Below are positions 37,760-61,763 of a DNA stretch of 64,000 bases, piece by piece (the stretch's first letter is position 1; each line of letters opens with the position of its first letter). Origin of the DNA: a phage. The DNA lies in sequence record OR896157.1; one strand, written 5' to 3'. A model generated the notes under the pieces. That model saw nothing but the letters and a program-made list of their open reading frames with translations, was not told the DNA's origin and ran no database searches. Position numbers and translations under genes: made by a program.

Positions 37760-37789
37760 ATAGTAACACACTTCCATGTGCGTGTAAAC
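37760..37789 (-). promoter_or_regulatory. T4-type early promoter (GTTTAC -35, TGn-extended TACTAT -10)
   Basis: Minus strand GTTTAC-N14-GTGT-TACTAT; one of 7 near-identical copies in this window. Confidence 0.55.
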
Positions 37790-37791
37790 GG

Positions 37792-39927
37792 TTAAAGAAC
37801 GAACTTCTCTGGAGTGTCTTCAACATCAATCATTGAAGCCAGCAGAGCAAGAATCTTGTTACTTTCCGACGTCTTTGTGGACTTCACAAATCCTTCAAAA
37901 TCAAATGGACCTGATTCAGGCTGAGGTTCGTCACTGTATTCTACTACTTCACCAGTTTCCATCAGAACATCACCGTCATAAACAACAGCTTCGTCTAATT
38001 GGTCAGCAGTCATTACTTCGCCTTGGATGAATTTCTGATTGTCATGCACGAGACCATCACTATAAGAAGCATCTACAATGTTGTTGACTTTCAGCATGGT
38101 ACCACGAGGCAGAATAACTTCCATTTCACCTGACATATTACTTAAGTCGCCAGGATAAACCACGTTAACTTTCTCGCCGCCAGTAATAGCCCAACCAATC
38201 ATGACTCTTGTGCTTTCAGCTTGCTGAACATCTTTAGCTGCATGAACCTCATCAGTAAGACCTAATTCAGCATAAGTCATAGAAGCTAACTTGACAGTTT
38301 CTGCACTGTTATCTGGCTGATTCAATACTGCACGAGTATTATCAGAAGCCATTGCAACCGCTTGGTTACCTTTCCAACCGCCAAAGATAATTGGAGATAA
38401 AGATGTTGAAACATAGTTTCTGAAATAGAATACTCTGTTCTTAACCATAGCTTCAAAAATTGGTTTACGAACTGACTGTGAACGCCATAAGGTAAGTCCT
38501 TCTGGAATTCTGTCGCCGCGTTTAAATGCATCGTCCAAATTTTTGATAGCAGTAGTAACTTCTTTATAAGACAGTGTATCGTAATTGTCAGCTCTATAAC
38601 GACCTAAAAGCATATTGTTGATGTCTGAATAACCGGAACCAACATACTCTTTAATGCCACGTTTTTCTGCATTTGTATATTGAAGAGGCGTACGAGTACG
38701 AGTAATATCTTCAATAGTAGCAGAAACGTTTTTAGCATAACCTTGAAGAGCTGCTTTAATCATTTTGGTACGTTCAATGTTCCAAAGATTGTTAGCCATT
38801 TGCTCTTTATCTTTTGGCTCAAGGTATTGTGGAACTTTAGTCATGATATGTTCCATTGCTTCATGTTTACGTTCTTCTAAAGAGTCCAAAAGAGTTTGAG
38901 TATATGCCTGCATACTCTTAACAGAAGTTAATGGAGCATTGCCAATTCTTGATTCAAGTTCTTTTACGAATCTTTGTTCAAATTTCTCAGATTGGCTCAA
39001 TTTAATCGTAGTCAACGATTTTAAATGGAAAATAGCACCAGTAGCTGCTAATTGAGCAGAACGAGCTTTAGCCGCTTTAGATTCTACTGCATCCTTCAAT
39101 TGCTGAGCTTCTGGAATAGGATTTGCCGTTGCGGGTTTACTGAATTCGGCAGCAGTAGCTTCGTATTTTTCAAATTCTTCTGGGTCATGAATAATGTCAG
39201 AAGTTAAAGATTGACTTGCTGCTACTTGACGACGAGATACCTTAGCACGAGCAATAACAGATTGGTCGGTACGTTTGTCGTTCTCTTGAGCAATAGTAGC
39301 TGCTAACGCTTCTGATTTAGAAACCTGTTTACCTGACTTATTGTTGATGTAAACATCGCCAACATCAGTATCAACCTTGGTGAACTCTTCTGTTGATATC
39401 TCTGGGATGCCAGGGACGGTTGAGAGGTCAACATTCTTACGATGAATAAGAACATACACGTACTTCTTATCGTAATCATAGAGTTCTTTCAGGATAACAA
39501 AACGACCGCCCAAACGACTCATCACCAAACGGTTGATAATCATCTGAACTGCTCGAGCTTGTCCACCCATTTTGCTTTTAGCAATACGGAACATAACTGC
39601 ATCCATTTTGTATTTCTTCACAGTTTGAGATACTAAGTCAAACATGGTAGAAATAACACCCAATGGATTACCACCAAGATTTTTCAGCTTAACCAAAGTA
39701 CCTTTTTCAGATACACCAAGCACAATAGCATGCATCATTTTATCGCCAGGTTTAACGTTCTTGTTAACGTCGCCACCGCCGGTGTAAGAACACATACGAA
39801 GAGCTACTGAACCTTCTGGAGCAGCAATTGCAAAAATCTGTGGAATTTTAGTTTTCGGATAAAGATTAGTGACCGGAAGCATTTCTGAATCCGCGTCAAA
39901 AATCTCATTTAATTGAAATTCGGTCAT
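37792..39927 (-). CDS. alt: Alt ADP-ribosyltransferase (virion-packaged)
   Basis: Start MTEFQLNEIFDADSEMLPVTNLYPKTKIPQIF matches T4 Alt N-terminus; R...STS...EME ADP-ribosyltransferase triad; own late promoter upstream. Confidence 0.85.
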   Translation of the reverse strand: MTEFQLNEIFDADSEMLPVTNLYPKTKIPQIFAIAAPEGSVALRMCSYTGGGDVNKNVKPGDKMMHAIVLGVSEKGTLVKLKNLGGNPLGVISTMFDLVSQTVKKYKMDAVMFRIAKSKMGGQARAVQMIINRLVMSRLGGRFVILKELYDYDKKYVYVLIHRKNVDLSTVPGIPEISTEEFTKVDTDVGDVYINNKSGKQVSKSEALAATIAQENDKRTDQSVIARAKVSRRQVAASQSLTSDIIHDPEEFEKYEATAAEFSKPATANPIPEAQQLKDAVESKAAKARSAQLAATGAIFHLKSLTTIKLSQSEKFEQRFVKELESRIGNAPLTSVKSMQAYTQTLLDSLEERKHEAMEHIMTKVPQYLEPKDKEQMANNLWNIERTKMIKAALQGYAKNVSATIEDITRTRTPLQYTNAEKRGIKEYVGSGYSDINNMLLGRYRADNYDTLSYKEVTTAIKNLDDAFKRGDRIPEGLTLWRSQSVRKPIFEAMVKNRVFYFRNYVSTSLSPIIFGGWKGNQAVAMASDNTRAVLNQPDNSAETVKLASMTYAELGLTDEVHAAKDVQQAESTRVMIGWAITGGEKVNVVYPGDLSNMSGEMEVILPRGTMLKVNNIVDASYSDGLVHDNQKFIQGEVMTADQLDEAVVYDGDVLMETGEVVEYSDEPQPESGPFDFEGFVKSTKTSESNKILALLASMIDVEDTPEKFVL

Positions 39928-39950
39928 TATGAGTCCTCTATTGTTTCTTA

Positions 39951-39958
39951 TATTTATA
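39951..39958 (-). promoter_or_regulatory. late promoter box TATAAATA (minus strand) for alt
   Basis: Reverse complement of tatttata ~25 nt upstream of alt ATG; consistent with Alt being a late virion protein. Confidence 0.55.
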
Positions 39959-39966
39959 GACAATTA

Positions 39967-39982
39967 AAGCCCCGAAGGGCTT
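39967..39982 (-). terminator. AAGCCC-UUCG-GGGCUU hairpin at the stop of the 72-aa ORF
   Basis: Perfect 6-bp stem with UUCG loop on the minus transcript. Confidence 0.45.
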
Positions 39983-40199
39983 AGACTGCAATAATATTCC
40001 TGAAGATTTCAACTTTTCCACCGCCACGAGTAGCAATGACCTCGTGTTTGTTGATTCCTGAAACTCGACCATCTGTAAATGATTCTACTTCACCTTGTGG
40101 GCGGAATGGTAATTCGACCAAGCTCTGTGTTACATTAGCGGCTCGTCCTGAGCCTTCACCTGGGTGAGCAATTGTGATAATCTCTAAATAGAATTTCAT
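39981..40199 (-). CDS. hypothetical protein, translationally coupled to DNA ligase
   Basis: 72-aa ORF whose ATG overlaps the ligase stop (ATGA); Gly-rich. Confidence 0.5.
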   Translation of the reverse strand: MKFYLEIITIAHPGEGSGRAANVTQSLVELPFRPQGEVESFTDGRVSGINKHEVIATRGGGKVEIFRNIIAV

Positions 40200-41641
40200 A
40201 GACCAGTAACCTCATGGAAATCGCCCCAGATATCAGCAAACGTATTTGCTACATCTTTGTCACGACGCATTTTAATTGCAATAGGCAAGAACAGTTTGAC
40301 ATAATCTGTCCGGCCTTCAGCAGCTAACCAACCATTACATTCGGATTCAAGAATACCACCGATGTATTCATTTTTATTCAGCCAAATACGAGTACGGTCT
40401 AACTCGTGCCAATCTGAAATTTTGTCTTTAAGACCTGAACCAGCTTTAACTTTAATCAGACCACATTCTGATTCAAGATAAAAACCACCGGCTTTGCCTG
40501 GTTGTTTACTATGCTCATATATATCAACAATGCGAAGGTCAATCGTAATAACTTCTTTGAACTTATAAAGGTTTTTAGAACGAGTGTTTTCCCAGAAAGC
40601 ACCAATGTTCTTCAGGATAATACCTTCAAGGCCTTCATCAACATATTTGCGATAAATGACCTTGGCTTCATCAAGATTATGAACGATGTGGTTCTCAATC
40701 AGAATCATCTGAGAGTAACCTTTAACCATCAGTTCTAATGCACGGAAGCGAACATCATACGCAAATCCAGATTCTTTACCTTCGGAATAAACAACATCCA
40801 ACGGAACGTAATCCCATACCTGGAATTTCATACCAGCAGCTTCTTTAGCTGAGATAGTTCCTTTCAGAGATTTATTGGCCAACCCGTTTGACATTGTACG
40901 GGATTCTTCTTTGAATTCCTTAGCTTCACTTAACTCAGGTAAATCGCCAAAGATATCGTCCAACGGACCAGCAGGTTCAACGATAGCATGATAAACGAGT
41001 TCACCGTCAATCATTACACCGCCAGGATGGCGTTCACGAGCTTCTTTAGTCATTTCGATGAGCTGTTGTTTCAGCAAATCTAAACCAAGATACTCGTTAC
41101 CAGCACGAGACAGAATTTTTACATCGTCTAATTCATCACCACGGATTTCAGCAAATGCTCGTGCGCCATCAGCCTTCAGCTGCGCAAATGCAGGGAACTT
41201 AATGTTCTTTTTAATGCCTTTTTCATCGTAAGATGAAGCAAGCATTTGAGGTTGTTCAGGAATTAGATTTTTCCATACTTTATTCGCAATACTACGGGAT
41301 GCGCCACAGCGCAAATCACGAAGCAGAACTTTCTTAATAACTTCTGCATCCGCATCAGATGTTTGAGATAAAGCAATTTCAAGTTTTTCCTTTGCGGCAT
41401 TACCGGTCACAACTCGCTTAGCTAATTTTTCTTCTAGCAAATAAAGCATGTCTTCAAGAGTAAGATGAATATCACCTTTAGGTCTCGTATCCCACTTCTT
41501 GATGTAATACTGGAGCTTACCATCATAAGTCATTCTGAATACTCGCTTCAAAAGCTCATTATCTTTATGACGACGAATGATAGCTTCTTTTTCTTTTGTA
41601 GAGCCAATTGAAGCAATTTCATTGATAATATCTAAAATCAT
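40196..41641 (-). CDS. 30: ATP-dependent DNA ligase gp30
   Basis: Start MILDIINEIASIGSTKEKEAI (T4 MILKILNEIASIGSTKQKQAI); KADGAR adenylation motif; GAGGTGA Shine-Dalgarno; 481 aa. Confidence 0.96.
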   Translation of the reverse strand: MILDIINEIASIGSTKEKEAIIRRHKDNELLKRVFRMTYDGKLQYYIKKWDTRPKGDIHLTLEDMLYLLEEKLAKRVVTGNAAKEKLEIALSQTSDADAEVIKKVLLRDLRCGASRSIANKVWKNLIPEQPQMLASSYDEKGIKKNIKFPAFAQLKADGARAFAEIRGDELDDVKILSRAGNEYLGLDLLKQQLIEMTKEARERHPGGVMIDGELVYHAIVEPAGPLDDIFGDLPELSEAKEFKEESRTMSNGLANKSLKGTISAKEAAGMKFQVWDYVPLDVVYSEGKESGFAYDVRFRALELMVKGYSQMILIENHIVHNLDEAKVIYRKYVDEGLEGIILKNIGAFWENTRSKNLYKFKEVITIDLRIVDIYEHSKQPGKAGGFYLESECGLIKVKAGSGLKDKISDWHELDRTRIWLNKNEYIGGILESECNGWLAAEGRTDYVKLFLPIAIKMRRDKDVANTFADIWGDFHEVTGL

Positions 41642-41666
41642 ATTCACCTCGTTTATTGTCCCGAGC

Positions 41667-41690
41667 GGGTATGACAATTATATCATACCC
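41667..41690 (-). terminator. hairpin GGGTATGA-N8-TCATACCC between the 30.1-like ORF and gene 30, containing a possible middle-promoter -10
   Basis: 8-bp inverted repeat; minus strand reads GCTTTAC-N11-TATAAT across it (MotA-box-like). Confidence 0.4.
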
Positions 41691-41699
41691 TTTGTAAAG

Positions 41700-41930
41700 C
41701 TATTGACCGCGATACTCACGAATGAGTTCAGCCAAAGTTCGGTGGTAAAGTACTCCACCATTTTTACGAGTAATGTAGATTGCGCCATTGAACATTGCAT
41801 CAATCATTTCACGTTGCTTTTGATTATCAGCATGAATGTTGCGCGCCTTGAAGAACTCTTCTTTGTTTGCGAAACTTTCAATACGCTTGGTTGCGTCTGT
41901 TTGAGGGAACCATTCAATTACGTTAATCAT
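41700..41930 (-). CDS. hypothetical protein (30.1-like position)
   Basis: 76-aa ORF with ATGA overlap to upstream ORF. Confidence 0.55.
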   Translation of the reverse strand: MINVIEWFPQTDATKRIESFANKEEFFKARNIHADNQKQREMIDAMFNGAIYITRKNGGVLYHRTLAELIREYRGQ

Positions 41931-42790
41931 ACTTTACCTATAGTAGTTTTAGCTGTAGGCTGACGATTCAGATATTCGATACCTGTCCCGATTCCAAAGT
42001 TTGGACGATGCACAGGAAGATTTCCTGGATGCTCATACCACGGCTTATAATCAGAAGGACCTGGATTTACCCATTTCTTTGGAAATTCTGGAAACTTATC
42101 AAATGGCCAATTCGGAGTAGTCTTTTCAACCTTTTTGAATAAGTCGCTCAGCTTATCACCAAGGCTTTCCTGGAATTCGCGCTGATTCATCAGACGCTGA
42201 ACATGTTCCCAGTTATGCACCTTTTCTCCATATTTAGAGGAGGTGTCTCGCTGACCACGAGGCATAAACATGCAATTGACTTCGCCGCCAAAGACTTCAT
42301 AAGCTGAATCTACGTGATGAGGAAGGTCATCAATATAAGCAACAACTCTGTCGCCATATTTTTCTTTTATTTTCTCGAAGAGCTTGGTTTTTGGCTCAGA
42401 GTGGTCGCAGATGAAAGTTTCAAGAAAAGCACCTGGGAACAAAGCGTTCAAGTTGAATTGACGATTCAGTTTAGCATCAACAGAAGTACCAAGCGCAGTA
42501 ACCGCAACGAAGTCATACTTATCTTTCAGAGCATTGACAACTTTCAGAGCATCGTCGTATGCTGCCAGATAGCGAATGAAATCTGAGCAATTATATTTGA
42601 CCATCAGCTGTTGAGCAAATTCTTCGTCTACACCAAACAGATCTTTTGGCGCAACGAATTGGTCATCAATAATCATTTCAAGAATGTGGTGAACAGGCAG
42701 ATTGTACTTCTGAGCGAAGTAAGGCAAGCCTGATTGCCACTTTACTAATACACCGTCTACATCAGTAGAGATAATTGGTTTATTTGACAT
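41927..42790 (-). CDS. HAD-superfamily phosphatase-like protein (30.2-like position)
   Basis: N-terminal ISTDVDGVL resembles HAD motif I (DxDGx); 287 aa. Confidence 0.55.
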   Translation of the reverse strand: MSNKPIISTDVDGVLVKWQSGLPYFAQKYNLPVHHILEMIIDDQFVAPKDLFGVDEEFAQQLMVKYNCSDFIRYLAAYDDALKVVNALKDKYDFVAVTALGTSVDAKLNRQFNLNALFPGAFLETFICDHSEPKTKLFEKIKEKYGDRVVAYIDDLPHHVDSAYEVFGGEVNCMFMPRGQRDTSSKYGEKVHNWEHVQRLMNQREFQESLGDKLSDLFKKVEKTTPNWPFDKFPEFPKKWVNPGPSDYKPWYEHPGNLPVHRPNFGIGTGIEYLNRQPTAKTTIGKV

Positions 42791-42956
42791 TTTTAGCCTT
42801 CATTTTAGCAATCATGTAAGCCGCGATACAAGATTTACCCGGCAGTGATGGTTGTCCAACTCCACTTAATAGAGTAGTTAACTCTCCTACTTTAATACCG
42901 CCTTGATTTAAGCGTTTTAAAACATCAAGACCTTTCATATCATATTTGACTTGCAT
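42780..42956 (-). CDS. small hypothetical protein (58 aa)
   Basis: ORF below the 60-aa track threshold found by hand; A/T-rich third positions; competes with an overlapping 73-aa frame (42935..43156). Confidence 0.3.
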   Translation of the reverse strand: MQVKYDMKGLDVLKRLNQGGIKVGELTTLLSGVGQPSLPGKSCIAAYMIAKMKAKNVK

Positions 42957-43103
42957 AACATTTTCTCAAAGGTTGTGATACTGTTAGCTGGGCCACTTAG
43001 AGTTATCTCTATGAACCCAGGCTGACTTGAAGGACCAATTCTGTATATACATATGGCTAATGTTCTTGCGTATTCCAGAAGGTCCTTCGTTAACCCTCTT
43101 ACA

Positions 43104-43307
43104 TTAAACTGTTTCATAAACTTCGTCATTAGCAGCTTTAAGAGGCTCGATTTCACATTCTAAACGAATATCAGTATTCCCGTCAACCCATTGTACTTCA
43201 TAAGCAGGTTGAACACCATATTCTGGAATTGATTCAGCAGTATCACAGATGACTCCCGGAATACCGCCTTTGCGCAGCTGTACTGGTTGTAAAATGTGGT
43301 ATTTCAT
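43104..43307 (-). CDS. hypothetical protein
   Basis: 67-aa ORF with GGTGG Shine-Dalgarno. Confidence 0.5.
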   Translation of the reverse strand: MKYHILQPVQLRKGGIPGVICDTAESIPEYGVQPAYEVQWVDGNTDIRLECEIEPLKAANDEVYETV

Positions 43308-43470
43308 TCTGCCACCGCATAAGTTAGAATTTGATGAAAGAAATCAGGGCATTCAAGCTGATACTTGACTTCTGTATCAGAGACAGTTACGCCCAGCACT
43401 TCAATCATCGGATTGCTCAACATGCCGCGTTCAAATTCAGGTGCTTTATTAAGAGGAATAGTGATAATCA

Positions 43471-43941
43471 TTACAGAGTCTCCAATACAGTTTTAACTTT
43501 AGCTTCAGCAACTTGTTTAACAACCAGAACACGAACACCTTCAACTGCATTACGAATTTGCTTTTGAGCTGCTTGGTTGGCTTCCTCTTCAGTGTAAGGA
43601 CCAACGCAGAAAGGCTGTTGAGAGCGATTAGTTGGAATAGTCATCATCCAGAAATCTTTTGCATCAGACTCTGTTGGTTTAACTTCTTCAAGGTACTTGT
43701 GAACATCAGTAGCCAAGAAGAAGCACCATACTATATTGAATACACCAACATTAGCATGATGAAGTTTACCATCAACATCGATTGCAATGATATTTCCACC
43801 ACTATCAACCTTTTTGACTGTGAATGGAGTTAGTCCATTATTCAACAGCTTAAGAAGTTCTTCAGAATAAGAACTTCCGCGATTTTTAAGACTACCAATA
43901 CCAGTTTCAGTCAACTTAAACTCTTTATCAACAATACACAT
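43471..43941 (-). CDS. hypothetical protein
   Basis: 156 aa from ATG (MCIVDKEF...) with GAGGAAA Shine-Dalgarno just downstream of a tetraloop hairpin. Confidence 0.6.
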   Translation of the reverse strand: MCIVDKEFKLTETGIGSLKNRGSSYSEELLKLLNNGLTPFTVKKVDSGGNIIAIDVDGKLHHANVGVFNIVWCFFLATDVHKYLEEVKPTESDAKDFWMMTIPTNRSQQPFCVGPYTEEEANQAAQKQIRNAVEGVRVLVVKQVAEAKVKTVLETL

Positions 43942-43960
43942 AACTATTTCCTCAAGTAGA

Positions 43961-43974
43961 GGGCCCGAAGGCCC
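43961..43974 (-). terminator. GGGCC-UUCG-GGCCC hairpin
   Basis: Perfect stem between two minus-strand ORFs. Confidence 0.5.
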
Positions 43975-43979
43975 TAAAT

Positions 43980-44342
43980 TTAGATTACGAATTCGTTTGA
44001 AACGATATCCCAAATTGCTTCACGCTGTTCTTCAGTTGTTTTCTGACCAAGAACGTGACGCAGATAAAGTTTAACCAGAAGTTTGCGATTGTCTCCGTTC
44101 CAAGAAGGATGAGTTCCTAAATCGCGTTTACGGTGGTCATCATGAAAACCAACAGAAATGACTGAACCTTTGAGTTTAACATCTAAAGTTGGGCCATTTT
44201 CAAAACTGATGAAGACGTAGTTATCTTCCCAGTACATATCGATTTGAGCAACTGTGCCATTTTTATGTTCCCAGAGTAAAGTTGTTGAAACGTCCCATGC
44301 ATTATCTTGAACGTATTTCTTTTTGAAGTTAGTGTAATCCAT
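43980..44342 (-). CDS. hypothetical early protein
   Basis: 120 aa from ATG (MDYTNFKKKYV...) with GGAG Shine-Dalgarno, downstream of a conserved early promoter. Confidence 0.6.
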   Translation of the reverse strand: MDYTNFKKKYVQDNAWDVSTTLLWEHKNGTVAQIDMYWEDNYVFISFENGPTLDVKLKGSVISVGFHDDHRKRDLGTHPSWNGDNRKLLVKLYLRHVLGQKTTEEQREAIWDIVSNEFVI

Positions 44343-44380
44343 TTTGTTCTCCGTTGTATCTGTTTGTTTATTGAGTTTAT

Positions 44381-44410
44381 ATACTAACACATACAACGGA
44401 GGATGTAAAC
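44381..44410 (-). promoter_or_regulatory. T4-type early promoter
   Basis: Minus strand GTTTAC-N14-GTGT-TAGTAT. Confidence 0.5.
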
Positions 44411-44413
44411 GGT

Positions 44414-44941
44414 TTAGTTCACTTCTGTGAAAATTGTTTGAGGAACGTACTCGGTTTTGGCAGTTGCAATCATCTTCATAATGATAGCTTTACCTTCAAT
44501 GTTTTTACGCAAGAACGACTTGCACGCATCATGAGCTTCTTCAGATGTCATAAGAATAGCTATGGAACGCTCGTCCCCTACTTGGTCCAGATTCAACCAA
44601 ACGTTTTCTTTCTTAGTCTGGCCTAAAGCTACATACATCACTTCAACGGTCTTTTCTTCAACCTCAACCTCAACCAGGAAATTTCTGACTTCAGTGCCGG
44701 TGAACCAAGGACATGAATCACCATTCATACCGTCAATTTCAGCACCTTTTGGGCTTATCCAGCTTTCATTTTCAAATCGGATAAGACCTACAGAACCACT
44801 TGCAATAGCTTCGCCTTTTGCAATGTAAAAAGACTTATCACCGATATACTCAGCAATAAGCTGATTCACTCTCTGATTACAGCCTTCGGTGGATTTTAAA
44901 AAGCCTTCTTTTTCTAAGCGGTACAGAACATCACTTTTCAT
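44414..44941 (-). CDS. hypothetical protein
   Basis: 175-aa ORF with GAGGAAA Shine-Dalgarno. Confidence 0.6.
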   Translation of the reverse strand: MKSDVLYRLEKEGFLKSTEGCNQRVNQLIAEYIGDKSFYIAKGEAIASGSVGLIRFENESWISPKGAEIDGMNGDSCPWFTGTEVRNFLVEVEVEEKTVEVMYVALGQTKKENVWLNLDQVGDERSIAILMTSEEAHDACKSFLRKNIEGKAIIMKMIATAKTEYVPQTIFTEVN

Positions 44942-44953
44942 AGTTTCCTCATA

Positions 44954-44967
44954 AGGCCCGAAGGCCT
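44954..44967 (-). terminator. AGGCC-UUCG-GGCCU hairpin
   Basis: Perfect stem between two minus-strand ORFs. Confidence 0.45.
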
Positions 44968-45340
44968 AGAACATTTTACGTTCGGTCCAGTTATCAAGAT
45001 TAACTGTACCAGTTTTCTTCATTTTTTCAATCAAGTTATCTGCACGAGTGCGTCCATTTTCATACCACACTACATCTTCAGAATAACCATCTTCGTCTTC
45101 ATAAGTTTCAGAACGAATATGACCATGAATGCTTGTTTTCAAAACGTATTCAGTGCCGGTGAACCAATTAGTCAGAATAATGTACCAGCAGAAATCAGTA
45201 GATGGACCTTCAGGAGTCATGCAGTGAACTACATCTCCTTGCCACGAAGACAGATGCCACATTGGCTCTTCTACTTCGATTGCTTTGTATCCATCGTGGT
45301 CTTTCGTTTTGATAGTAGCATTCAGATTAATTGTGTTCAT
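44966..45340 (-). CDS. hypothetical early protein
   Basis: 124 aa from ATG (MNTINLNATIK...) with GGAG Shine-Dalgarno downstream of a conserved early promoter; earlier start-like codons fall inside the promoter. Confidence 0.6.
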   Translation of the reverse strand: MNTINLNATIKTKDHDGYKAIEVEEPMWHLSSWQGDVVHCMTPEGPSTDFCWYIILTNWFTGTEYVLKTSIHGHIRSETYEDEDGYSEDVVWYENGRTRADNLIEKMKKTGTVNLDNWTERKMF

Positions 45341-45376
45341 TTTATTCTCCGTTACCATATTGGTTATTGAGATTCT

Positions 45377-45406
45377 ATCATAACACAACTTTTGGCAGAT
45401 GTAAAC
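45377..45406 (-). promoter_or_regulatory. T4-type early promoter
   Basis: Minus strand GTTTAC-N14-GTGT-TATGAT. Confidence 0.5.
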
Positions 45407-45408
45407 GG

Positions 45409-45612
45409 TTAGAGTTTTTCGCAACTATGGTATTCAGCATCTGCCCAAATGCCGAATGCTGGCAATGATTCTAGCATTGAGTTTCCAACTTCAATTGGGT
45501 CTTCCCACGGCCAAAGTGTAGCAATCTTTTCATAGAAAAAGACTGAATCCATATGTGAATATTCTGCAGGGTATTCTGATATAACTTTGAAAATAAATTT
45601 ACGTTTAAACAT
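45409..45612 (-). CDS. hypothetical protein
   Basis: 67 aa from ATG (MFKRKFIF...) with GAGG Shine-Dalgarno. Confidence 0.5.
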   Translation of the reverse strand: MFKRKFIFKVISEYPAEYSHMDSVFFYEKIATLWPWEDPIEVGNSMLESLPAFGIWADAEYHSCEKL

Positions 45613-45634
45613 ATGAACCTCTGGATGCAAAAAA

Positions 45635-45654
45635 GGGACTCCCGAAGGAGTCCC
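45635..45654 (-). terminator. GGGACUCC-UUCG-GGAGUCCC hairpin
   Basis: Perfect 8-bp stem with UUCG loop on the minus transcript. Confidence 0.5.
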
Positions 45655-45665
45655 GAACTTATGCT

Positions 45666-45845
45666 TTATGCTTTCTTACGTGGATTACCAAATGCAGCAT
45701 CATGAGCAATAACTTTGCGAGCGCGAGATGCTAGCTGGTCAGCCAATGGATTAATACGAGAGTTAGACCCACGCTTGTAGCCAGCGCGTTTAGAGGTACC
45801 AACAACTTCTTTTACTGCAGTTTTTGCTTTAGCTTGTTTAGCCAT
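45666..45845 (-). CDS. small highly basic protein (30.9-like position)
   Basis: 59 aa from internal ATG: MAKQAKAKTAVKEVVGTSKRAGYKRGSNSRINPLADQLASRARKVIAHDAAFGNPRKKA. Confidence 0.5.
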   Translation of the reverse strand: MAKQAKAKTAVKEVVGTSKRAGYKRGSNSRINPLADQLASRARKVIAHDAAFGNPRKKA

Positions 45846-46162
45846 TTTTAGTCTTCCATTTTGGAGAAATACATGGGAGCACGTTCTTCCGAGTTTCAAC
45901 TTCTTTCGACAGTTCTTTCGGTTGTAGCTCCCGCAAGCCCTCAAAGGGTACTTTGTGAGTTTTGTATATTTAACGTTCCGGTTCTCACAACCTTAACTTC
46001 ATACGCTCTTATCTGTTGCACACCGTTAGCTTAAAGGTTCCGGGTCCGATTTCTCGAGGATAAGATATACACTGATGGATGCATAGGCCTTGAGGCGTAC
46101 TCCCGATTGGCCATCACCTCGGGGTAGCATGCACTTGCCGCGTAACTTGCCTTACAGCAACA

Positions 46163-46417
46163 TTACTTCAGAGTCACTACGAAATGACGAACCGCTTTAC
46201 GAGCTGCTGAACACAGAGGTTTAGCAAACTTCAGCTCATCTTTCAGAGCAAGTACATCGCGGAGGTCTGCCTGAACAGGATTCAGATGTTTGAAACCTTT
46301 CAGAACTTCCAGTGCTTCGGCGTAAACGTCGATTGATGCACCGTAGTTATCGTGACCTGCGTTCCAGGAGTTGCGCTGCAGATGCAGAGCGTGTTCAAGT
46401 TGTTTGTTCATTGACAT
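46163..46417 (-). CDS. rIII: rIII lysis-inhibition accessory protein
   Basis: 84 aa from internal ATG with GAGGAA Shine-Dalgarno; position next to gene 31 and size as in T4 (82 aa). Confidence 0.8.
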   Translation of the reverse strand: MSMNKQLEHALHLQRNSWNAGHDNYGASIDVYAEALEVLKGFKHLNPVQADLRDVLALKDELKFAKPLCSAARKAVRHFVVTLK

Positions 46418-50748: not shown

Positions 50749-51101
50749 TTGGTGGCCTCCTGGAACTCTAGAGTCAATTTGTTGAAAGACTCATTTAACT
50801 GTTTTTCAACCAGCTTAGGCTTAGCTTTGACCACGTGCTCGCGTTTAGCATCTTTAGCCATTTTAGCGTCAGACTTATCAGCCTCCGCTCTGTTTTCTTT
50901 ACGTACTTCATCGTACGTATTCAAATTTTTGATATCTAGCTTCAGCTTATCAATAGCTTTATCTTGAGCTTCTGCTACCTCTTGAACTTCTTTTAGTCCA
51001 AGTTTTAAGTTATCGATTCGCATTGACTGGAATTGGATGAATCCATAAGCTGCCAGTCCTAGTGCTACTACAATAACATGTGTGTTTGTTATTTTGAACA
51101 T
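50745..51101 (-). CDS. inner-membrane coiled-coil protein, probable i-spanin (pseT.3-like)
   Basis: N-terminal hydrophobic anchor (VIVVALGLAAYGFIQF) followed by charged coiled-coil region; immediately upstream of the lipoprotein. Confidence 0.65.
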   Translation of the reverse strand: MFKITNTHVIVVALGLAAYGFIQFQSMRIDNLKLGLKEVQEVAEAQDKAIDKLKLDIKNLNTYDEVRKENRAEADKSDAKMAKDAKREHVVKAKPKLVEKQLNESFNKLTLEFQEATK

Positions 51102-51595
51102 AATTTGATGATTGCCTGTACAATATCGTCCTGAGAAAGACCATTGATAAGAATATGGTGTTCAGCAGGAGAGTTTTGAATTTTGAAGCAGGGATCCACC
51201 ATCTCTGCCATTTCAGAAGCAGACAGACGAGGATTTGAAACACCCAGACGATGCTTTCCATAGATTGGGTCTACAATGATGTAGCACTTACAACCATTTA
51301 CATGAACGTTTGGTTGGGAAATGTTAATCATCACTTCTGCACCGTACTTGGTCAGATGATTATCTAAGAAGCTGCGCATTTCTTCTACTGCTTCAGGCAT
51401 CTTCTCAGCGCGTTCTTCATTTACGCGGTTGCTATATTCTTTACGAGCCTTTTGACGCTTTTGGTCGCGAGAGTAAGCTACACGTAAATCTGTGATGTAA
51501 CCCAGAGGACGAGAATTTTTGAAAATACGAATCCCGTCATGATGAGTGCCACCGTAAATTTCTATTAGTTCTTCAGCAGTGATTAAGTTCAGCAT
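51089..51595 (-). CDS. alc: probable Alc (host transcription unfolding/termination protein)
   Basis: 168 aa vs 167 in T4 at the identical position between pseT.3 and rnlA; downstream of a conserved early promoter; function by synteny. Confidence 0.6.
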   Translation of the reverse strand: MLNLITAEELIEIYGGTHHDGIRIFKNSRPLGYITDLRVAYSRDQKRQKARKEYSNRVNEERAEKMPEAVEEMRSFLDNHLTKYGAEVMINISQPNVHVNGCKCYIIVDPIYGKHRLGVSNPRLSASEMAEMVDPCFKIQNSPAEHHILINGLSQDDIVQAIIKLCSK

Positions 51596-51626
51596 TTCGT
51601 TTTCTCCATTTGGTTAGTGTAGAGAC

Positions 51627-51656
51627 ATAGTAACACAACCAAATGGAGATGTAAAC
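51627..51656 (-). promoter_or_regulatory. T4-type early promoter upstream of alc
   Basis: Minus strand GTTTAC-N14-GTGT-TACTAT followed by GGAG Shine-Dalgarno and alc ATG. Confidence 0.55.
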
Positions 51657-51658
51657 GG

Positions 51659-52789
51659 TTAGATGTACTTAGCCGGAATGAACGGCTTAGAGTTCTTCAA
51701 GAACGCAGCGTTCAGCTTCGTGATGAGCTGGTCGTCATCAAGGTCTCCTGCATACATTTTCATGATGATACCGAAAATCTGAGGTAGACCCGCTGCGGCA
51801 GTAGCCGCTTGAGCATTTGCTGCATAAGTCTTACGATCTTTACCACGATGAGTAGAGTAGAAGTCTTGGCACAGTTTAAGAGCTGAACGAAGATAGTCTA
51901 AGTACTGGGTTTCAAAGGCATTAATCTTATCGATAGCTACTTTATCATTATCAAACATGCCACGAAGGTCATCAGCAGCATTGTTCACGATGCATTCAAA
52001 CAGACGTTGGTTGTTGATAATAGAATCCTTTGTGTGGTGTAGAGCACAATACCATTCTGTTTTCAGTTTGAAACGAAGACCATCTTCCATTACGCAAACA
52101 TAACCTTCAATTTGTTCTTCAGCACGAATCTTGGAAACGAAATCTCCATTAGGAACTTCAAATGCTTCTACCAGATACTTACGAAGAACTGGATGTGCCA
52201 AAAGGTCTTCGTAATCAATGTACTCACCTGTGTCATTTTCGCGAACGTTCAGAAGAATAAGCATCTTTTCATGGTAGTTCAGAACAATTCGGTTTTGTGG
52301 AGAACAGTATTCAAAGTTAGCAGTGAAACCATCTTTTGCTAAATCAATCAGAGCTTCAGCCAAATCCAGATGATCGATACTTGCCAGCATTGCAGAAGCT
52401 TCAACAGCCTGCTCAGATTTGATAGAAGTCTTAGACTTAAAGCGAATACGATTTTCACCGTCCAAATAAGTAGAAACCAAGGAGCCATCTTCTTTGGCTA
52501 ACATATACTTAATCTTAGAAAGGTCCAGATTCATAGTGAATGGAGTTTCATTAAGATTGAAGAACTTTTCCATTGGACGAGATGCGATACGCACCGGGGC
52601 ATCGTCTGAATCAAGTTCAAACATAATGCCACGACACTCTAATGCAGACGGCAGGAGCCAGTCAGAGTAAGATGCGTAATGGTAAGAAAACGTGCGATAT
52701 TTGTACCCCATTGGAGATACATCATCACAGTAGAAGAAACGAGTTTCATCGTTACATAGAGTCATGAGCTCATTGAATAATTTTTTCAC
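51659..52789 (-). CDS. rnlA: RNA ligase 1 (gp63, tail fibre attachment catalyst)
   Basis: KKLFNELMTLCNDETRFFYCDDVS...KEDGSL matches T4 Rnl1; first codon appears to be GTG overlapping denA stop (GTGA); 376 aa. Confidence 0.92.
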   Translation of the reverse strand: MKKLFNELMTLCNDETRFFYCDDVSPMGYKYRTFSYHYASYSDWLLPSALECRGIMFELDSDDAPVRIASRPMEKFFNLNETPFTMNLDLSKIKYMLAKEDGSLVSTYLDGENRIRFKSKTSIKSEQAVEASAMLASIDHLDLAEALIDLAKDGFTANFEYCSPQNRIVLNYHEKMLILLNVRENDTGEYIDYEDLLAHPVLRKYLVEAFEVPNGDFVSKIRAEEQIEGYVCVMEDGLRFKLKTEWYCALHHTKDSIINNQRLFECIVNNAADDLRGMFDNDKVAIDKINAFETQYLDYLRSALKLCQDFYSTHRGKDRKTYAANAQAATAAAGLPQIFGIIMKMYAGDLDDDQLITKLNAAFLKNSKPFIPAKYI

Positions 52790-53225: not shown

Positions 53226-54401
53226 TTACAAATACTTTCTGAATTTCAACAGCACATCAGCATCTACATCGTTATCAATCTGTGCTACAAGGTAACTTGA
53301 GATTTCAACTTCTTGTGGAGCAGATTGTACCGCATCTGAGTTTAAGTATTCACGAATCCATGGGATTGGGTGACGAACAGGAGCGTCAGTAATCGGGCAT
53401 GGAAGACCACAGCTACGCATACGTGAAACAGTCAGATAGTCGATGAAGTCATGAAGGATTTTCACTGAAAGACCAGGAACTCCACCATCACGCCACAGAT
53501 GAACTGCCCATTCTTTTTCTTGGCGGTTGATTTCCATGAAGATATCAACGGCTTCTTGTTCGCATTCACGAGCAATCTGAACCCATTCTTCGCCATCAGT
53601 GCCAAGTTGAAGCTGACGAATAATGTACTGCGTGCCTTTCAGATGAAGCTGTTCATCGCGTGCAATGAACTTCATAATCTTGGAGTTACCTTCCATGATT
53701 TCCATGTTCTTATGGAAATTGAAGGTACATGCGAAAGATACGTAAAAACGAATTGCTTCAAGACCATTGATGACATGCAGACACAGATAAAGTGCTTTCA
53801 TTAGTTCACGTTTAGCATCAATGACATATCCTTCATACATTTCAATGTCATTTTGTTGGCATGAACCAAGAGATTCTTCATACCGCTCTTTAGCGTTTTC
53901 CCACAGACGAGTCTTCAGAATTACATCGTCATAATAATGACCAATTGTCTCAGCTCGTTTCATAATTGCTTCATCGAGAACAATCTCATCAAACACCTTT
54001 GCCGGGTCATTCAGCAGGTTACGCATGATGTGAGTATATGAACGAGAGTGAATCGTTTCAGAGAACGTCCAGGTCTGGTTCCATGTATCGAGTGATGGGT
54101 CAGAAATCAGAGCAGAAAGAACAGCAGCTGGAGCTCGGCCTTGGATTGAATCCAGAAGGCTTTGATATTTCAAATTATCAAGGAATACGTTTTGCTGGCC
54201 AACTGGAAGCTTTTCAAATTGAGCTCGGTCAGTCATCAGGTTAACTTCTTCAGGACGCCAGAAGAACGAGAGTTGTTTCTCAATCAATTCTTCAAATGTA
54301 CGGTGACGCTGAATATCATATCGTGCAATACCAAGCCCACTTCCGAAGAACATCGGCTCGGTCATCAAATCTACTTGTTGCGTATTAAAAACTGTGCTCA
54401 T
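53226..54401 (-). CDS. nrdB: aerobic ribonucleotide reductase small subunit, uninterrupted
   Basis: 391 aa vs 388 in T4 NrdB; continuous ORF, no intron. Confidence 0.95.
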   Translation of the reverse strand: MSTVFNTQQVDLMTEPMFFGSGLGIARYDIQRHRTFEELIEKQLSFFWRPEEVNLMTDRAQFEKLPVGQQNVFLDNLKYQSLLDSIQGRAPAAVLSALISDPSLDTWNQTWTFSETIHSRSYTHIMRNLLNDPAKVFDEIVLDEAIMKRAETIGHYYDDVILKTRLWENAKERYEESLGSCQQNDIEMYEGYVIDAKRELMKALYLCLHVINGLEAIRFYVSFACTFNFHKNMEIMEGNSKIMKFIARDEQLHLKGTQYIIRQLQLGTDGEEWVQIARECEQEAVDIFMEINRQEKEWAVHLWRDGGVPGLSVKILHDFIDYLTVSRMRSCGLPCPITDAPVRHPIPWIREYLNSDAVQSAPQEVEISSYLVAQIDNDVDADVLLKFRKYL

Positions 54402-54619
54402 TTAACTTCCTCAAATTCAAATTCAACATTCACCTGAGCAATAGCTTCAGCTGCGCAACGATAACCTTCAAGAAACATTGCAAGACTGTGATCGTCGTCG
54501 TTTACCATTAAAGGTGGAACTTCGTTTAATGCAGAACGAATGATGAATGTTTTCATTTGTTCGCCATTATTATAAACGGCATAAATGTCGTACCATTTTG
54601 CTTCTGTTCTGTGGCTCAT
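54398..54619 (-). CDS. hypothetical protein
   Basis: 73-aa ORF with ATGA overlap to nrdB. Confidence 0.5.
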   Translation of the reverse strand: MSHRTEAKWYDIYAVYNNGEQMKTFIIRSALNEVPPLMVNDDDHSLAMFLEGYRCAAEAIAQVNVEFEFEEVK

Positions 54620-54792
54620 AAATTGTATGTCCTATTAAGTAATTCTGACGTAACTTTAGTTGATTCTGAATAAATTCTAAACTCTTCGTCTAGCTTTTTA
54701 AGACGTTTTCTTAATTTTTCAATAAATTCAGGCGTCAACTCTATTGTTTTAACTATTTCCAAAAGTTCTTGAATACTCATAGTTTGCTTCAT
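54616..54792 (-). CDS. hypothetical protein
   Basis: 58 aa from ATG (MKQTMSIQELL...) with AGGAGG Shine-Dalgarno. Confidence 0.5.
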   Translation of the reverse strand: MKQTMSIQELLEIVKTIELTPEFIEKLRKRLKKLDEEFRIYSESTKVTSELLNRTYNL

Positions 54793-54804
54793 AAATCCTC
54801 CTAA

Positions 54805-60191: not shown

Positions 60192-60515
60192 TCAGAAAGA
60201 ATTCGAATCATAACCAGCAGCCCTTACAAGACGACGCATCATTTCCATTCCATCTTCAACAGCACCAGCGAGTTCTTCAAATGCAGTTTTAGTGAAGATG
60301 AAAGCCGCACCTACTTTCTGACGCTGAAGATAACCGTTGATGATTTGGTCATCCAGCGGGAAGGTGCCATATCCAGTTTCAATTATGCCTGACACTCGGT
60401 TACCACGGGAGTGTGGGTCATACTCCATAGTAATCCAAGATACACCTGGAAAATTCTCAAACTGACAACGTACTTTAACTTTAGGATATGCAATTGAGTG
60501 AATATCGTTAGACAT
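60192..60515 (-). CDS. hypothetical early protein
   Basis: 107-aa ORF with TAATG overlap upstream. Confidence 0.55.
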   Translation of the reverse strand: MSNDIHSIAYPKVKVRCQFENFPGVSWITMEYDPHSRGNRVSGIIETGYGTFPLDDQIINGYLQRQKVGAAFIFTKTAFEELAGAVEDGMEMMRRLVRAAGYDSNSF

Positions 60516-60799
60516 TATTTTGGCTCCTTTTTAGCAATTTTCCAGGCAGCTTTGAAAGCTTCGACTTCAGAAATTTCAATCCAAAAACCGCTACCAAAGC
60601 CATCGTTATAGCAGGGACAGCCATCGCAGTAATGGTCCCAAGTAAGTACCAGACCATCACCACGAACAGCACCAGTTTCCATTTCGCGAAGGCGGTCTTC
60701 AGCAGCTTCAATAGCTTCCGGGTCATTCCCTTCGATGATAAAGTACCACTTGCCATTGTATTCACTTCCGAGTTTAATTGATTGACGTTGAAGTTTCAT
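60515..60799 (-). CDS. hypothetical early protein with CDGCPC motif
   Basis: 94 aa from ATG (MKLQRQSIKLG...) with AAGGAG Shine-Dalgarno directly downstream of a conserved early promoter. Confidence 0.55.
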   Translation of the reverse strand: MKLQRQSIKLGSEYNGKWYFIIEGNDPEAIEAAEDRLREMETGAVRGDGLVLTWDHYCDGCPCYNDGFGSGFWIEISEVEAFKAAWKIAKKEPK

Positions 60800-60826
60800 T
60801 TTATTCTCCTTTGTTTTGATAGGGCT

Positions 60827-60856
60827 ATAGTAACACACCATAGCCCTGATGTAAAC
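60827..60856 (-). promoter_or_regulatory. T4-type early promoter
   Basis: Minus strand GTTTAC-N14-GTGT-TACTAT; -10 flanked by inverted repeat AGGGCTAT/ATAGCCCT. Confidence 0.55.
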
Positions 60857-60858
60857 GG

Positions 60859-61107
60859 TTAGTCGTCTACTTTTAGCAACTTTTTGAAAGCATCAAATGA
60901 TTTCATGTGCTTTGGTTCAAGATACACATGCTTAACCATCTTGCCTTCAAGGGAGAAGACTTCAACTACCATGTCATAACACTCGTCTTCAACGAGATGC
61001 ATGCATTTTGGAGTACAAGCTTTGTCAAACAACTGAACCAAGTTGTTGCCAGCCCAGATGTTTTTGCTGCCGTCATAGCTATAATCTTCAGAAAGAACAT
61101 AAAACAT
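60859..61107 (-). CDS. hypothetical early protein
   Basis: 82 aa from ATG (MFYVLSEDY...) with GGAG Shine-Dalgarno. Confidence 0.5.
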   Translation of the reverse strand: MFYVLSEDYSYDGSKNIWAGNNLVQLFDKACTPKCMHLVEDECYDMVVEVFSLEGKMVKHVYLEPKHMKSFDAFKKLLKVDD

Positions 61108-61120
61108 TTTAATCTCCAAA

Positions 61121-61134: not shown

Positions 61135-61139
61135 TATTA

Positions 61140-61412
61140 TTAAGCGGTGTAATCTTCCACCATTTCCATGATGTATTCATAATCTTCTTCGTCTTGGGCA
61201 TAAAAATCTTTAACCCAAAGACCAATGTCTACTTGATGACCAATTAATTTAATTTCTGGCCAGCCGCCGCCTTGACCACTTTCATTTACAACTTCAAATT
61301 TCAAACCACTAAATGGACTATTGAAACGAGAGCCGTCATCAAACTCTAAATCAACTACTTTACCGTTTTCTTTAACGAGATCGCATACAATGTCAATTAC
61401 AAGTTGTTTCAT
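61140..61412 (-). CDS. hypothetical acidic early protein
   Basis: 90-aa ORF downstream of a conserved early promoter. Confidence 0.55.
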   Translation of the reverse strand: MKQLVIDIVCDLVKENGKVVDLEFDDGSRFNSPFSGLKFEVVNESGQGGGWPEIKLIGHQVDIGLWVKDFYAQDEEDYEYIMEMVEDYTA

Positions 61413-61444
61413 TTTGATTTACTCTCTGTTGTTTTGATAGTGCT

Positions 61445-61474
61445 ATAATACCACATCCATGCGGTGATGTAAAC
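61445..61474 (-). promoter_or_regulatory. T4-type early promoter
   Basis: Minus strand GTTTAC-N14-GTGG-TATTAT. Confidence 0.5.
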
Positions 61475-61476
61475 GG

Positions 61477-61701
61477 TTAGTTGCAAATTTCAGAAATAGT
61501 GTCAGCCAAGAATTCGCCAGTTTCGTCAGCGCCTACGCAGTAAGATTCAGTTAAGAATTTTACAATTTTCTCACGAGGACCGAATACTTTGTATTCATAT
61601 CCCCATTCTACATCGCCTGCTAATTCACAGTTTAGACCGAATTTTTCAACTTCAGCTTCAAAATGTTCTTCATCTGCAACGCCGAGATAGATATGTGCCA
61701 T
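61477..61701 (-). CDS. hypothetical acidic early protein
   Basis: 74-aa ORF with GGAG Shine-Dalgarno downstream of a conserved early promoter. Confidence 0.55.
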   Translation of the reverse strand: MAHIYLGVADEEHFEAEVEKFGLNCELAGDVEWGYEYKVFGPREKIVKFLTESYCVGADETGEFLADTISEICN

Positions 61702-61733
61702 TTTGTTTTACTCCGTTTGGTTGGTGTAAGAGT

Positions 61734-61763
61734 ATAGTAACACAGCTTAAAGCGGATGTAAAC
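61734..61763 (-). promoter_or_regulatory. T4-type early promoter
   Basis: Minus strand GTTTAC-N14-GTGT-TACTAT. Confidence 0.55.

Follow-up and report, generated by a model that had tools for sequence, protein, structure and literature searches.

The analyzed window, 64,000 nucleotides of sequence record OR896157.1, contains seven sites that are very probably T4-type early promoters dependent on sigma-70, located in compact intergenic cassettes, three of which carry a stem-loop of the PeSL (promoter-early stem-loop) type. The window is a Karamvirus sequence similar to Enterobacter phage PG7 (about 98% identical), and the genes of the closest relative include Alt, a ModA-like protein, AsiA, MotA and a RegB-type endoribonuclease. 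The element is of an already known kind, and the current understanding of T4-like gene expression remains unchanged. The value of the sites for annotation is that with them the correct start codons of seven small early genes and the boundaries of transcription units can be set; the records of the genus give coding sequences only. In addition, Karamvirus phages of Enterobacter and Erwinia are shown to follow the grammar of T4 early promoters and the design of PeSL cassettes.

Motif and layout of the seven cassettes

The motif GTTTAC-N14-GTGKTANNAT has seven exact matches in the window, exclusively on the minus strand, and all sites of the original prediction lie at the coordinates given there. 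When up to two mismatches were allowed, the 11 matches observed compared with an expectation of 0.95 based on dinucleotide shuffling, and a count of 11 was not obtained in any of 100 shuffled sequences. A scan with a position weight matrix (PWM), as had been proposed together with the prediction, was performed on the window with a matrix built from the seven sites. In 128 kb (both strands together) the sites scored 39.6-48.8 bits and the next-best match 17.4 bits, revealing a sharply bounded class; with a threshold of 15 bits, shuffled sequence yielded 0.0 matches per strand. Generic sigma-70 scans remained at chance level (48 matches versus 49.7 expected, and 25 versus 22.2 in a second scan), showing that the signal is present only in the extended, phage-specific motif. 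A looser motif search added only two weak matches in the window, at 49765 and 41011, which lie inside coding sequence, are not followed by a Shine-Dalgarno sequence (SD) and ATG, and were judged to be chance matches.

The cassettes and their signals are listed below, together with a terminator that precedes the last of them:

37730..37794, minus strand: cassette 1, upstream of alt.-3 (ORF 37732..37442, DUF5498); alt stop codon TAA 37794-37792; -35 GTTTAC 37789-37784; -10 TACTAT 37765-37760; predicted +1 A 37753; SD GGAG 37742-37739; ATG 37732
44340..44416, minus strand: cassette 2, upstream of 30.7 (ORF 44342..43980, PF06919); upstream TAA 44416-44414; -35 44410-44405; -10 TAGTAT 44386-44381; SD GGAG 44352-44349; ATG 44342
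45338..45411, minus strand: cassette 3, upstream of 30.8 (ORF 45340..44966, PF06019); upstream TAA 45411-45409; -35 45406-45401; -10 TATGAT 45382-45377; SD GGAG 45350-45347; ATG 45340
51593..51661, minus strand: cassette 4, upstream of alc (ORF 51595..51089, PF17527); rnlA stop codon TAA 51661-51659; -35 51656-51651; -10 TACTAT 51632-51627; predicted +1 A 51620; SD GGAG 51607-51604; ATG 51595
60797..60861, minus strand: cassette 5, upstream of frd.1 (ORF 60799..60515, DUF5417); upstream TAA 60861-60859; -35 60856-60851; -10 TACTAT 60832-60827; predicted +1 A 60820; SD GGAG 60809-60806; ATG 60799
61410..61479, minus strand: cassette 6, upstream of an unknown ORF (61412..61140, phrog_5922); stop codon TAA of the frd.3-like gene 61479-61477; -35 61474-61469; -10 TATTAT 61450-61445; predicted +1 A 61438; SD GAGAG 61426-61422; ATG 61412
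61699..61773, minus strand: cassette 7, upstream of a weakly frd.3-like ORF (61701..61477); -35 61763-61758; -10 TACTAT 61739-61734; predicted +1 A 61727; SD GGAG 61714-61711; ATG 61701
61849..61872, minus strand: canonical intrinsic terminator after gene 32, AGAAGGAGCCTTCGGGCTCCTTTT followed by GTTGTTTTTG

The -35 element GTTTAC is exact at all seven sites, and so is the extended -10 element GTG(T/G)-TAnnAT with its TGn, A-11 and T-7. The designation of the sites as near-identical was overstated, because the 30-nt cores share only 57-80% pairwise identity (mean 71%) and 15 of the 30 columns are invariant. The predicted pattern AACC-GTTTAC-AT is mostly present, with the exceptions that site 37760 has AC instead of AT and that site 61734 has TGCC instead of AACC. 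The distance to the -10 hexamer is invariably 17 nt when counted from the sigma-70-aligned TTTACA, and 18 nt when counted from GTTTAC, for which a 17-bp spacer had been claimed. The SD was expected together with the ATG within about 30 nt; this is true for the SD (17-28 nt after the -10), while the ATG follows at 27-38 nt. Transcription is predicted to start about 7 nt past the -10, with an A at five of the seven sites, and would result in a leader of 21-32 nt with a GGAG-type SD ahead of the ATG (GGAG in six cases, GAGAG in one). As to gene starts, the automatic ORF start was said often to fall inside the promoter; this is the case at three sites, whereas at one site it lies upstream of the -35 and at three it already is the SD-preceded ATG. 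Furthermore, two instead of three 30.x-type ORFs were found (30.7 and 30.8), and three of the sites belong to the frd-32 cluster.

At six of the seven sites the conserved AACC takes in the TAA stop codon of the upstream gene, and GTTTAC follows 2-3 nt later, so that each gap of 65-77 nt forms one compact cassette. The overlap with the stop codon had been missed in the original prediction, as had the embedding of some promoters in conserved hairpins. The seventh site, which does not have this layout, comes after the gene-32 terminator, which precedes promoter 7 by about 85 nt and behind which a new early transcription unit begins. In five of six T4-like genomes, a terminator following gene 32 is reported to be conserved (PMC1524935). 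The ORF behind promoter 7 scored 25.8 bits against PF05798, below the cut-off of 28.1.

Relation to early promoters of T4 and of further phages

The consensus of T4 early promoters places GTTTAC at -36 to -31 and a GT-rich/TGn extension ahead of -12, and contains A-11/T-7 (PMC1524935, PMC2988021). The seven sites match these T4 promoters (Pe), which form the UP/-35/TGn/-10 class used by the host E-sigma70, in the position of GTTTAC, the 17-bp sigma-70 spacing, the GT-rich/TGn extension, the TAnnAT, the C/T before the (here predicted) +1 A and the GGAG SD. They appear to differ from them in the upstream extension, a lineage-specific (T)AACC where T4 has an A-rich, UP-like stretch from -40 to -44; here, this region is taken up by the last part of the preceding coding sequence and its TAA, with the consensus cTAACC and no A-tract.

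The gene junctions are the same as well. The sites lie 5' of, and co-oriented with, orthologues of the early genes alt.-3, 30.7, 30.8, alc and frd.1, and also 5' of a weakly frd.3-like ORF. In T4 the motif GTTTAC-N14-TGnTAnnnT precedes alt.-3, 30.7, 30.8, alc, frd.1 and frd.3; five of the seven sites have T4 counterparts carrying it. The RefSeq and GenBank records of T4 do not contain promoter features apart from one note, which names an early promoter Pe133295; the -10 of the motif ends 7 nt before this coordinate, at 133302, in line with the start-site distance expected in the original prediction. For T4 frd.3, an abundant primary transcript with an NAD cap (+1A) is known. Erwinia phage COW86c retains all seven sites at matching gene junctions, and three orthologous sites are conserved in a Jiaodavirus. 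The agreement of consensus and synteny supports the reading as T4-type early promoters for the host RNA polymerase, which had been part of the original prediction. Host RNA polymerase would start at the seven sites immediately after infection, and the promoter-proximal genes, i.e., alt.-3, 30.7, 30.8, alc, frd.1 and two small ORFs, would be expressed early.

Stem-loops within the promoters

Strong hairpins were found at three of the seven sites in the window, i.e., at 44381, 51627 and 60827, and at 12 of the 27 family members genome-wide:

44349..44401, minus strand: hairpin of cassette 2 (30.7), minimum free energy -27.3 kcal/mol, z=-6.4; 5' arm CTCCGTTGTAT 44401-44391 (promoter spacer), 3' arm ATACAACGGAG 44359-44349 (includes the SD)
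51604..51648, minus strand: hairpin of cassette 4 (alc), minimum free energy -26.4, z=-6.9; 5' arm CTCCATTTGGTT 51648-51637 (spacer), 3' arm AACCAAATGGAG 51615-51604 (includes the SD)
60821..60847, minus strand: hairpin of cassette 5 (frd.1), 12-bp stem, z=-2.5, self-duplex -19.2 kcal/mol; arms AGGGCTATGGTG 60847-60836 and TACTATAGCCCT 60832-60821

The loop of the cassette 2 hairpin holds the -10 and the predicted transcription start. The hairpin of cassette 5 closes over the -10 and lies entirely upstream of the predicted +1, leaving the SD untouched; hairpins closing over the -10 generally leave the SD exposed. Cassettes 1 and 3 do not form a significant hairpin (fold z=+1.1 and z=-0.6, respectively), and folding of cassette 6 did not yield one either. 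In cassette 7 a weak pairing of CCGTTT in the -35 region with AAACGG in the SD region was seen, with a marginal fold z=-2.1. An Rfam search of 37000-64000 retrieved no families.

The structure of the hairpins is conserved across genera while the sequences of their arms change, and thus the stem-loop is under selection. For the 30.7 hairpin, 97% of the positions are paired in the orthologues, two compensatory pairs are present, and the stem is kept in five of six unrelated arm classes. For the alc hairpin the value is 87.5%, compared to at most 46% in slid registers, and the stem is kept with other sequences in T4 (GTCCCTCGTGTT pairing with AACATGAGGAC) and in the Jiaodavirus (TCCTCATCAG with CTGATGAGGA). 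Also the frd.1 hairpin has covarying versions, AGGGTA with TACCCT in T4 and GGAGCTAT with ATAGCTCC in the Jiaodavirus. The hairpins are a clean natural example of a conserved structure with changing sequence inside a promoter. Genome-wide, the duplexes of each spacer with its own downstream region average -11.6 kcal/mol for the 27 family members, versus -8.15 +/- 0.53 for permuted pairings, and none of 20,000 permutations was as low as the own pairings. The sense strand folded better than the antisense strand in 34 versus 8 of 43 cases, the sequences being related and not independent.

The three hairpin cassettes have the PeSL architecture of Arbiol, Comeau and Krisch. PeSL cassettes are described for RB49/phi1, T4/PST and KVP40/nt-1 in Arbiol et al. 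2010 (PMC2839356) and Comeau et al. 2014 (PMC4122927); their promoter consensus is TTTACW-N17-TAYWAT (PMC4122927), and most often their stem-loops are located between the two promoter boxes or extend over the -10 (PMC2839356). The cassettes of the window share this consensus and the combination of an early promoter with a stem-loop between the boxes or over the -10, and there are possible signs of exchange between cassettes. In contrast to PeSL, a strong stem-loop is present in only three of the seven, the stems are not of the polyG/polyC type, a U-tract is missing, and in a comparison of a single pair of genomes (window versus COW86c) indel breakpoints do not occur at the cassettes. A further difference is that in two cassettes the 3' arm is the SD itself, a constellation whose consequence is not discussed in the available text of PMC2839356 and PMC4122927. 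A role of the hairpins as intrinsic terminators was not supported; because a U-tract is absent after all three stems they are not canonical intrinsic terminators, and none was scored as terminator-like.

Possible roles and origin of the cassettes

The stem in the 30.7, alc and frd.1 cassettes consists of the promoter spacer as 5' arm and a 3' arm downstream of the -10. As the 5' arm is in the promoter spacer, the stem can form only in read-through RNA or melted DNA, whereas RNA started at the cassette's own promoter cannot form it. At 44381 and 51627, and only there, the 3' arm includes the SD, with the 5' arm upstream of the start predicted for the internal promoter. For 30.7, the computed probability of an unpaired SD dropped from 0.56 in RNA from its own promoter to 0.00 in read-through RNA, and for alc from 0.60 to 0.00; for cassette 7 the values were 0.36 and 0.08. 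Read-through RNA of alc and 30.7 would then be translationally silent and shielded from the GGAG-cutting RegB nuclease, and the transcript from the own promoter would stay open. It is conceivable, if rather doubtful, that the promoter-embedded hairpin of alc, 30.7 and about one third of the family genome-wide acts in this way as a transcript-origin switch. The spacer would hide the SD (GGAG, the RegB motif) in upstream-derived RNA and leave it free in own-promoter RNA, so that translation and RegB sensitivity would be strictly tied to the brief early-promoter window. Masking of the SD by the spacer was rejected as a family-wide feature by a spacer-swap control (0.25 native versus 0.28 swapped, P=0.23).

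The T4 genes e, soc, 49 and I-TevI have hairpins that sequester the ribosome binding site in long transcripts, with an internal promoter inside the hairpin. This promoter is a late one, which results in late-only translation. The alc and 30.7 cassettes resemble these cases in that the 5' arm precedes the start of the internal promoter and the SD can be masked only in read-through RNA, and differ in that the internal promoter is predicted to be early. If true, the switch would parallel the late-promoter-in-hairpin logic of e, soc and 49, and with alc and 30.7 a dependence of translation on the origin of the transcript can be put to the test. A ribosome binding site hairpin of mobE is also cited in PMC3014915.

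The inverted repeats might instead act as DNA, i.e., as cruciforms, as non-template hairpins exposing a single-stranded -10, or as operators for a shut-off factor. It would fit that all strong hairpins have the -10 within their loop or their 3' arm, and the mechanism of early-promoter shut-off has been described as incompletely understood (PMC3014915). Against this stands that arm sequences are wholly different between promoters and genera, which excludes a sequence-specific operator, and that more than half of the family has no hairpin. With a length of 12-30 nt the loops disfavour the extrusion of cruciforms, and the G.U pairs in the stems, together with the better folding of the sense strand, favour RNA; action at the DNA level is thus quite improbable. 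It has even less probability that the sites are MotA/AsiA-dependent middle, or dual early/middle, promoters, for which it speaks that the closest relative encodes both proteins and that about half of the T4 middle promoters also have a TGn (PMC2988021). All seven sites have the full GTTTAC -35, none has a MotA box, (a/t)(a/t)TGCTT(t/c)a with its centre at -30, and the sole GCTT is found at -26 to -23 of site 61734.

It also appears unlikely, although less so, that the repeats are primarily recombination modules, i.e., mobile cassettes of the PeSL type that are similar due to copy exchange and for which promoter activity is real but secondary. An identical 18-nt spacer core at two unrelated loci argues for this, and so do the different 5'UTRs of the orthologous alt.-3 cassettes of the window and COW86c and the identical repeats of about 55 bp that make up the alt.-3 and alc cassettes of T4. 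However, the spacers diverge strongly (the cores being 57-80% identical) and only the positions contacted by RNA polymerase are invariant, which is a signature of selection on promoter function. In addition, the sites have stayed at their gene junctions (seven of seven in COW86c, five of seven with T4 counterparts), and the idea that cassettes serve as indel breakpoints was not supported, as zero indels between the window and COW86c end at a cassette. Early promoters in compact cassettes thus remain the preferred reading, and exchange may have occurred among them, as the hairpin-less cassettes look like inter-cassette recombinants with a crossover near the -10. At L005:19008 and at COW86c alt.-3 the 18-nt spacer core of cassette 1 is followed by a 5'UTR unlike that of cassette 1, and the 5'UTR sequence agcactatc of cassette 6 is complementary not to its own spacer but to that of another cassette (L006:1467).

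Seven probable early promoters on the minus strand

It had been predicted that the window contains seven near-identical early promoters, and the observation was confirmed, as all seven sites were found in place. The following list gives the 30-nt cores and the downstream genes.

37760-37789, minus strand, putative early promoter ahead of alt.-3 (DUF5498)
44381-44410, minus strand, putative early promoter ahead of 30.7 (PF06919)
45377-45406, minus strand, putative early promoter ahead of 30.8 (PF06019)
51627-51656, minus strand, putative early promoter ahead of alc (PF17527)
60827-60856, minus strand, putative early promoter ahead of frd.1 (DUF5417)
61445-61474, minus strand, putative early promoter ahead of an ORF without assigned function (phrog_5922)
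61734-61763, minus strand, putative early promoter ahead of a weakly frd.3-like ORF (PF05798, 25.8 bits, under its cut-off)

The pattern GTTTAC-N14-GTGKTANNAT had seven exact matches in the window, all on the minus strand, and when two mismatches were tolerated 11 matches were found versus 0.95 expected by chance. With a position weight matrix (PWM) derived from the seven sites, these scored 39.6-48.8 bits, the highest-scoring other position in the window 17.4 bits, and shuffled sequence gave no match of at least 15 bits; therefore, the class is sharply bounded. A generic TTGACA/TATAAT scan of the window yielded chance level only, and, thus, the signal resides in the extended phage-specific motif. 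"Near-identical" was an overstatement, as the cores are 57-80% identical; 15 columns are invariant, and these are the polymerase-contact positions. The 17.4-bit match (51296-51325, plus strand, caaccATTTAC...) was the only one outside the family above background. It lies antisense within alc, lacks a -10 element, and is probably due to chance.

The assignment to the T4-type early promoters is supported by sequence and by synteny, with minor corrections to the original prediction. The sites match the published features, i.e., GTTTAC at -36 to -31, a GT-rich run 5' of -12, A-11/T-7, and C residues immediately ahead of +1 (PMC1524935, PMC2988021). For the promoter-early stem-loops (PeSL) of T4 and PST, the promoter consensus is TTTACW-N17-TAYWAT (PMC4122927). 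A scan of the T4 genome revealed the motif ahead of alt.-3, 30.7, 30.8, cd.2, alc, frd.1, and frd.3. An early promoter in the T4 record is called Pe133295, and the -10 element of the motif at this place ends at 133302, which is exactly 7 nt upstream of that coordinate. T4 frd.3 ranks with the most abundant NAD-capped primary transcripts (bioRxiv 10.1101/2024.04.04.588121), and hence has a +1A. Erwinia phage COW86c, with an identity of about 92%, has kept all seven sites, and orthologous sites precede alt.-3, alc, and frd.1 in a Jiaodavirus phage. A MotA box was found at none of the seven sites.

Across 37000-47000, the window shares 98% identity with the Enterobacter phages vB_VIPECLUMC02 and PG7 (Karamvirus, Tevenvirinae). 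The gene order is T4-like: the plus strand carries the late genes 7 to 54, and the minus strand alt, 30, 30.x, rIII, 31, cd, pseT, alc, rnlA, nrdB, nrdA, td, frd, 32, and 59. Genes for Alt, a ModA-like ADP-ribosylase, AsiA, MotA, and a RegB-type endoribonuclease are present in the closest relative. In the stretches examined, both Enterobacter phage records contain CDS and tRNA features only and no promoters. The seven elements, new and unannotated, probably belong to the T4 early promoters and PeSL cassettes, both of which are well described.

Organization of the promoter cassettes

Each cassette occupies a single gap of 65-77 nt between two genes, in the order stop codon, -35 element, 18-nt interval ending in GTG(T/G), TAnnAT, predicted +1 (an A in five of seven cases), predicted leader of 21-32 nt, Shine-Dalgarno sequence (SD; GGAG, at one site GAGAG), and ATG. 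At six sites the TAA of the upstream gene is located 5 or 6 nt ahead of the G of GTTTAC, and therefore the "AACC" of the original prediction consists of the last bases of a stop codon and CC. At the seventh site, 61734-61763, the upstream neighbour is the canonical intrinsic terminator that follows gene 32 (61872-61849), and the TAA 10 nt upstream closes a mere 45-codon open frame overlapping this terminator. Domain assignments revealed two 30.x genes instead of the predicted three, and three sites in the frd-32 cluster. Naive ORF starts inside the promoters were verified for three sites (37777, 44396, 60841) and not for the other four; at one site the first start codon is upstream of the -35 element (45424), and at three it is the ATG preceded by the SD.

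Two strong terminator-like hairpins were also observed. One, with a T-tract, lies between the convergent genes 54 and alt.-3 (37415-37438, plus strand; 10 bp stem, 6 GC pairs), and the other, GGGACTCCTTCGGGAGTCCC followed by TTTTTT, precedes the 30.8 promoter by about 230 nt (45654-45635, minus strand).

Hairpins within the promoters

In a near-complete genome assembled from the closest relative and the window, the family has 27 members, every one of them on the early-gene strand. The pairing of each spacer with its own downstream sequence averaged -11.6 kcal/mol, versus -8.15 +/- 0.53 kcal/mol with the sequence of other members (0/20000 permutations as low), and the distribution was bimodal (12 strong hairpins, 15 members without). 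Strong hairpins in the window are at 44381 (z=-6.4), 51627 (z=-6.9), and 60827 (z=-2.5). Upstream of 30.7, IMG/VR orthologues and T4 have six unrelated spacer classes, five of which keep the stem (-18 to -23 kcal/mol). The arm pairs of alc in the window, T4, and the Jiaodavirus phage are all unrelated to each other, and for frd.1 the pairs in these three are AGGGCTAT::ATAGCCCT, AGGGTA::TACCCT, and GGAGCTAT::ATAGCTCC, respectively. In two close-relative alignments 97% and 88% of cells were paired, compared to at most 59% in slid registers, and each contains two compensatory pairs. Promoter-embedded hairpins have previously been described as PeSL, and stem-loops between -35 and -10, or overlapping -10, are the commonest arrangement according to Arbiol et al. 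(PMC2839356).

The sense strand folded better than the antisense strand (34 versus 8 of 43, P=0.004) and had more G.U pairs, which speaks modestly for a function in read-through mRNA as opposed to a DNA cruciform. With its 5' arm ahead of the predicted start site, the stem would form only in transcripts that enter from upstream. The SD is part of the 3' arm at 44381 and 51627, and its unpaired probability was 0.56-0.60 for the own-promoter transcript and 0.00 for read-through RNA. At these two sites, the SD would be masked in read-through RNA and open in the own-promoter transcript. This predicted masking by transcript origin, in the alc and 30.7 subset only, is the only mildly novel angle. 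RegB cleaves GGAG in early SDs, and secondary structure is protective (PMC3014915). Masking as a trait of the whole family was rejected (spacer-swap control, 0.25 versus 0.28, P=0.23), because a generic CTCC-like stretch is present in many spacers, and because hairpins closing over the -10 element use up the spacer, so that the SD stays exposed. All of the stems lack a U-tract behind them, which makes canonical termination unlikely; the PeSL authors demonstrated terminator activity for only a single G/C-rich RB49 stem.

A family member upstream of the endonuclease V gene (OQ721913, L006:13869-13800) has its hairpin wholly in its own leader (gtcctcc...ggaggac). With SD unpaired probabilities of 0.18 (own) and 0.00 (read-through), the SD would be masked even in the own-promoter transcript.

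Possible cassette exchange, and insertions

An exact copy of the alt.-3 promoter's 18-nt spacer is joined to a different leader at a second locus of the same genome, and the 30-nt cores of these unrelated loci (37760-37789 and L005:19008-18979) are identical. In COW86c, the alt.-3 cassette (L037:2993) carries the leader/5'UTR of the other locus, which points to a recent recombination event between cassettes, the crossover being at the -10 element. For each of the leaders "tacctcatacc" and "agcactatc", one copy has a complementary spacer and forms a hairpin, and one or more copies have an unrelated spacer and no hairpin, e.g., at 61445. Therefore, hairpin-less cassettes look like recombinants with a crossover near -10, in line with reported crossovers in the loop in RB49 (PMC2839356). 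In T4, the alt.-3 (123093-123040) and alc (136336-136283) cassettes, 13 kb apart, are repeats with essentially the same sequence over about 55 bp, which span promoter and leader as far as the SD; they are a possible deletion/duplication substrate or trace of cassette exchange.

None of the indels that distinguish COW86c from the window has an end at a cassette. A segment of about 684 bp (62827-63511), located between genes 32 and 59, is missing in COW86c. The T4 gene 32/59 junction harbors the homing endonuclease SegG, so this segment may be a mobile endonuclease insertion. COW86c contains two additional segments of about 600-675 bp (L037 15482-16157 and 18634-19232), inserted at window positions of about 50325 and 52800. 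One is annotated as a MobD-like endonuclease and adjoins rnlA/denA, and promoter cassettes adjoin neither. The offset between the window and PG7 shifts by about 1250 nt from alc to frd.1 (window 53800-54800), and therefore PG7 has extra sequence in the nrdB-nrdA region, possibly an intron or insertion; its nrdB is annotated as 1662 nt.
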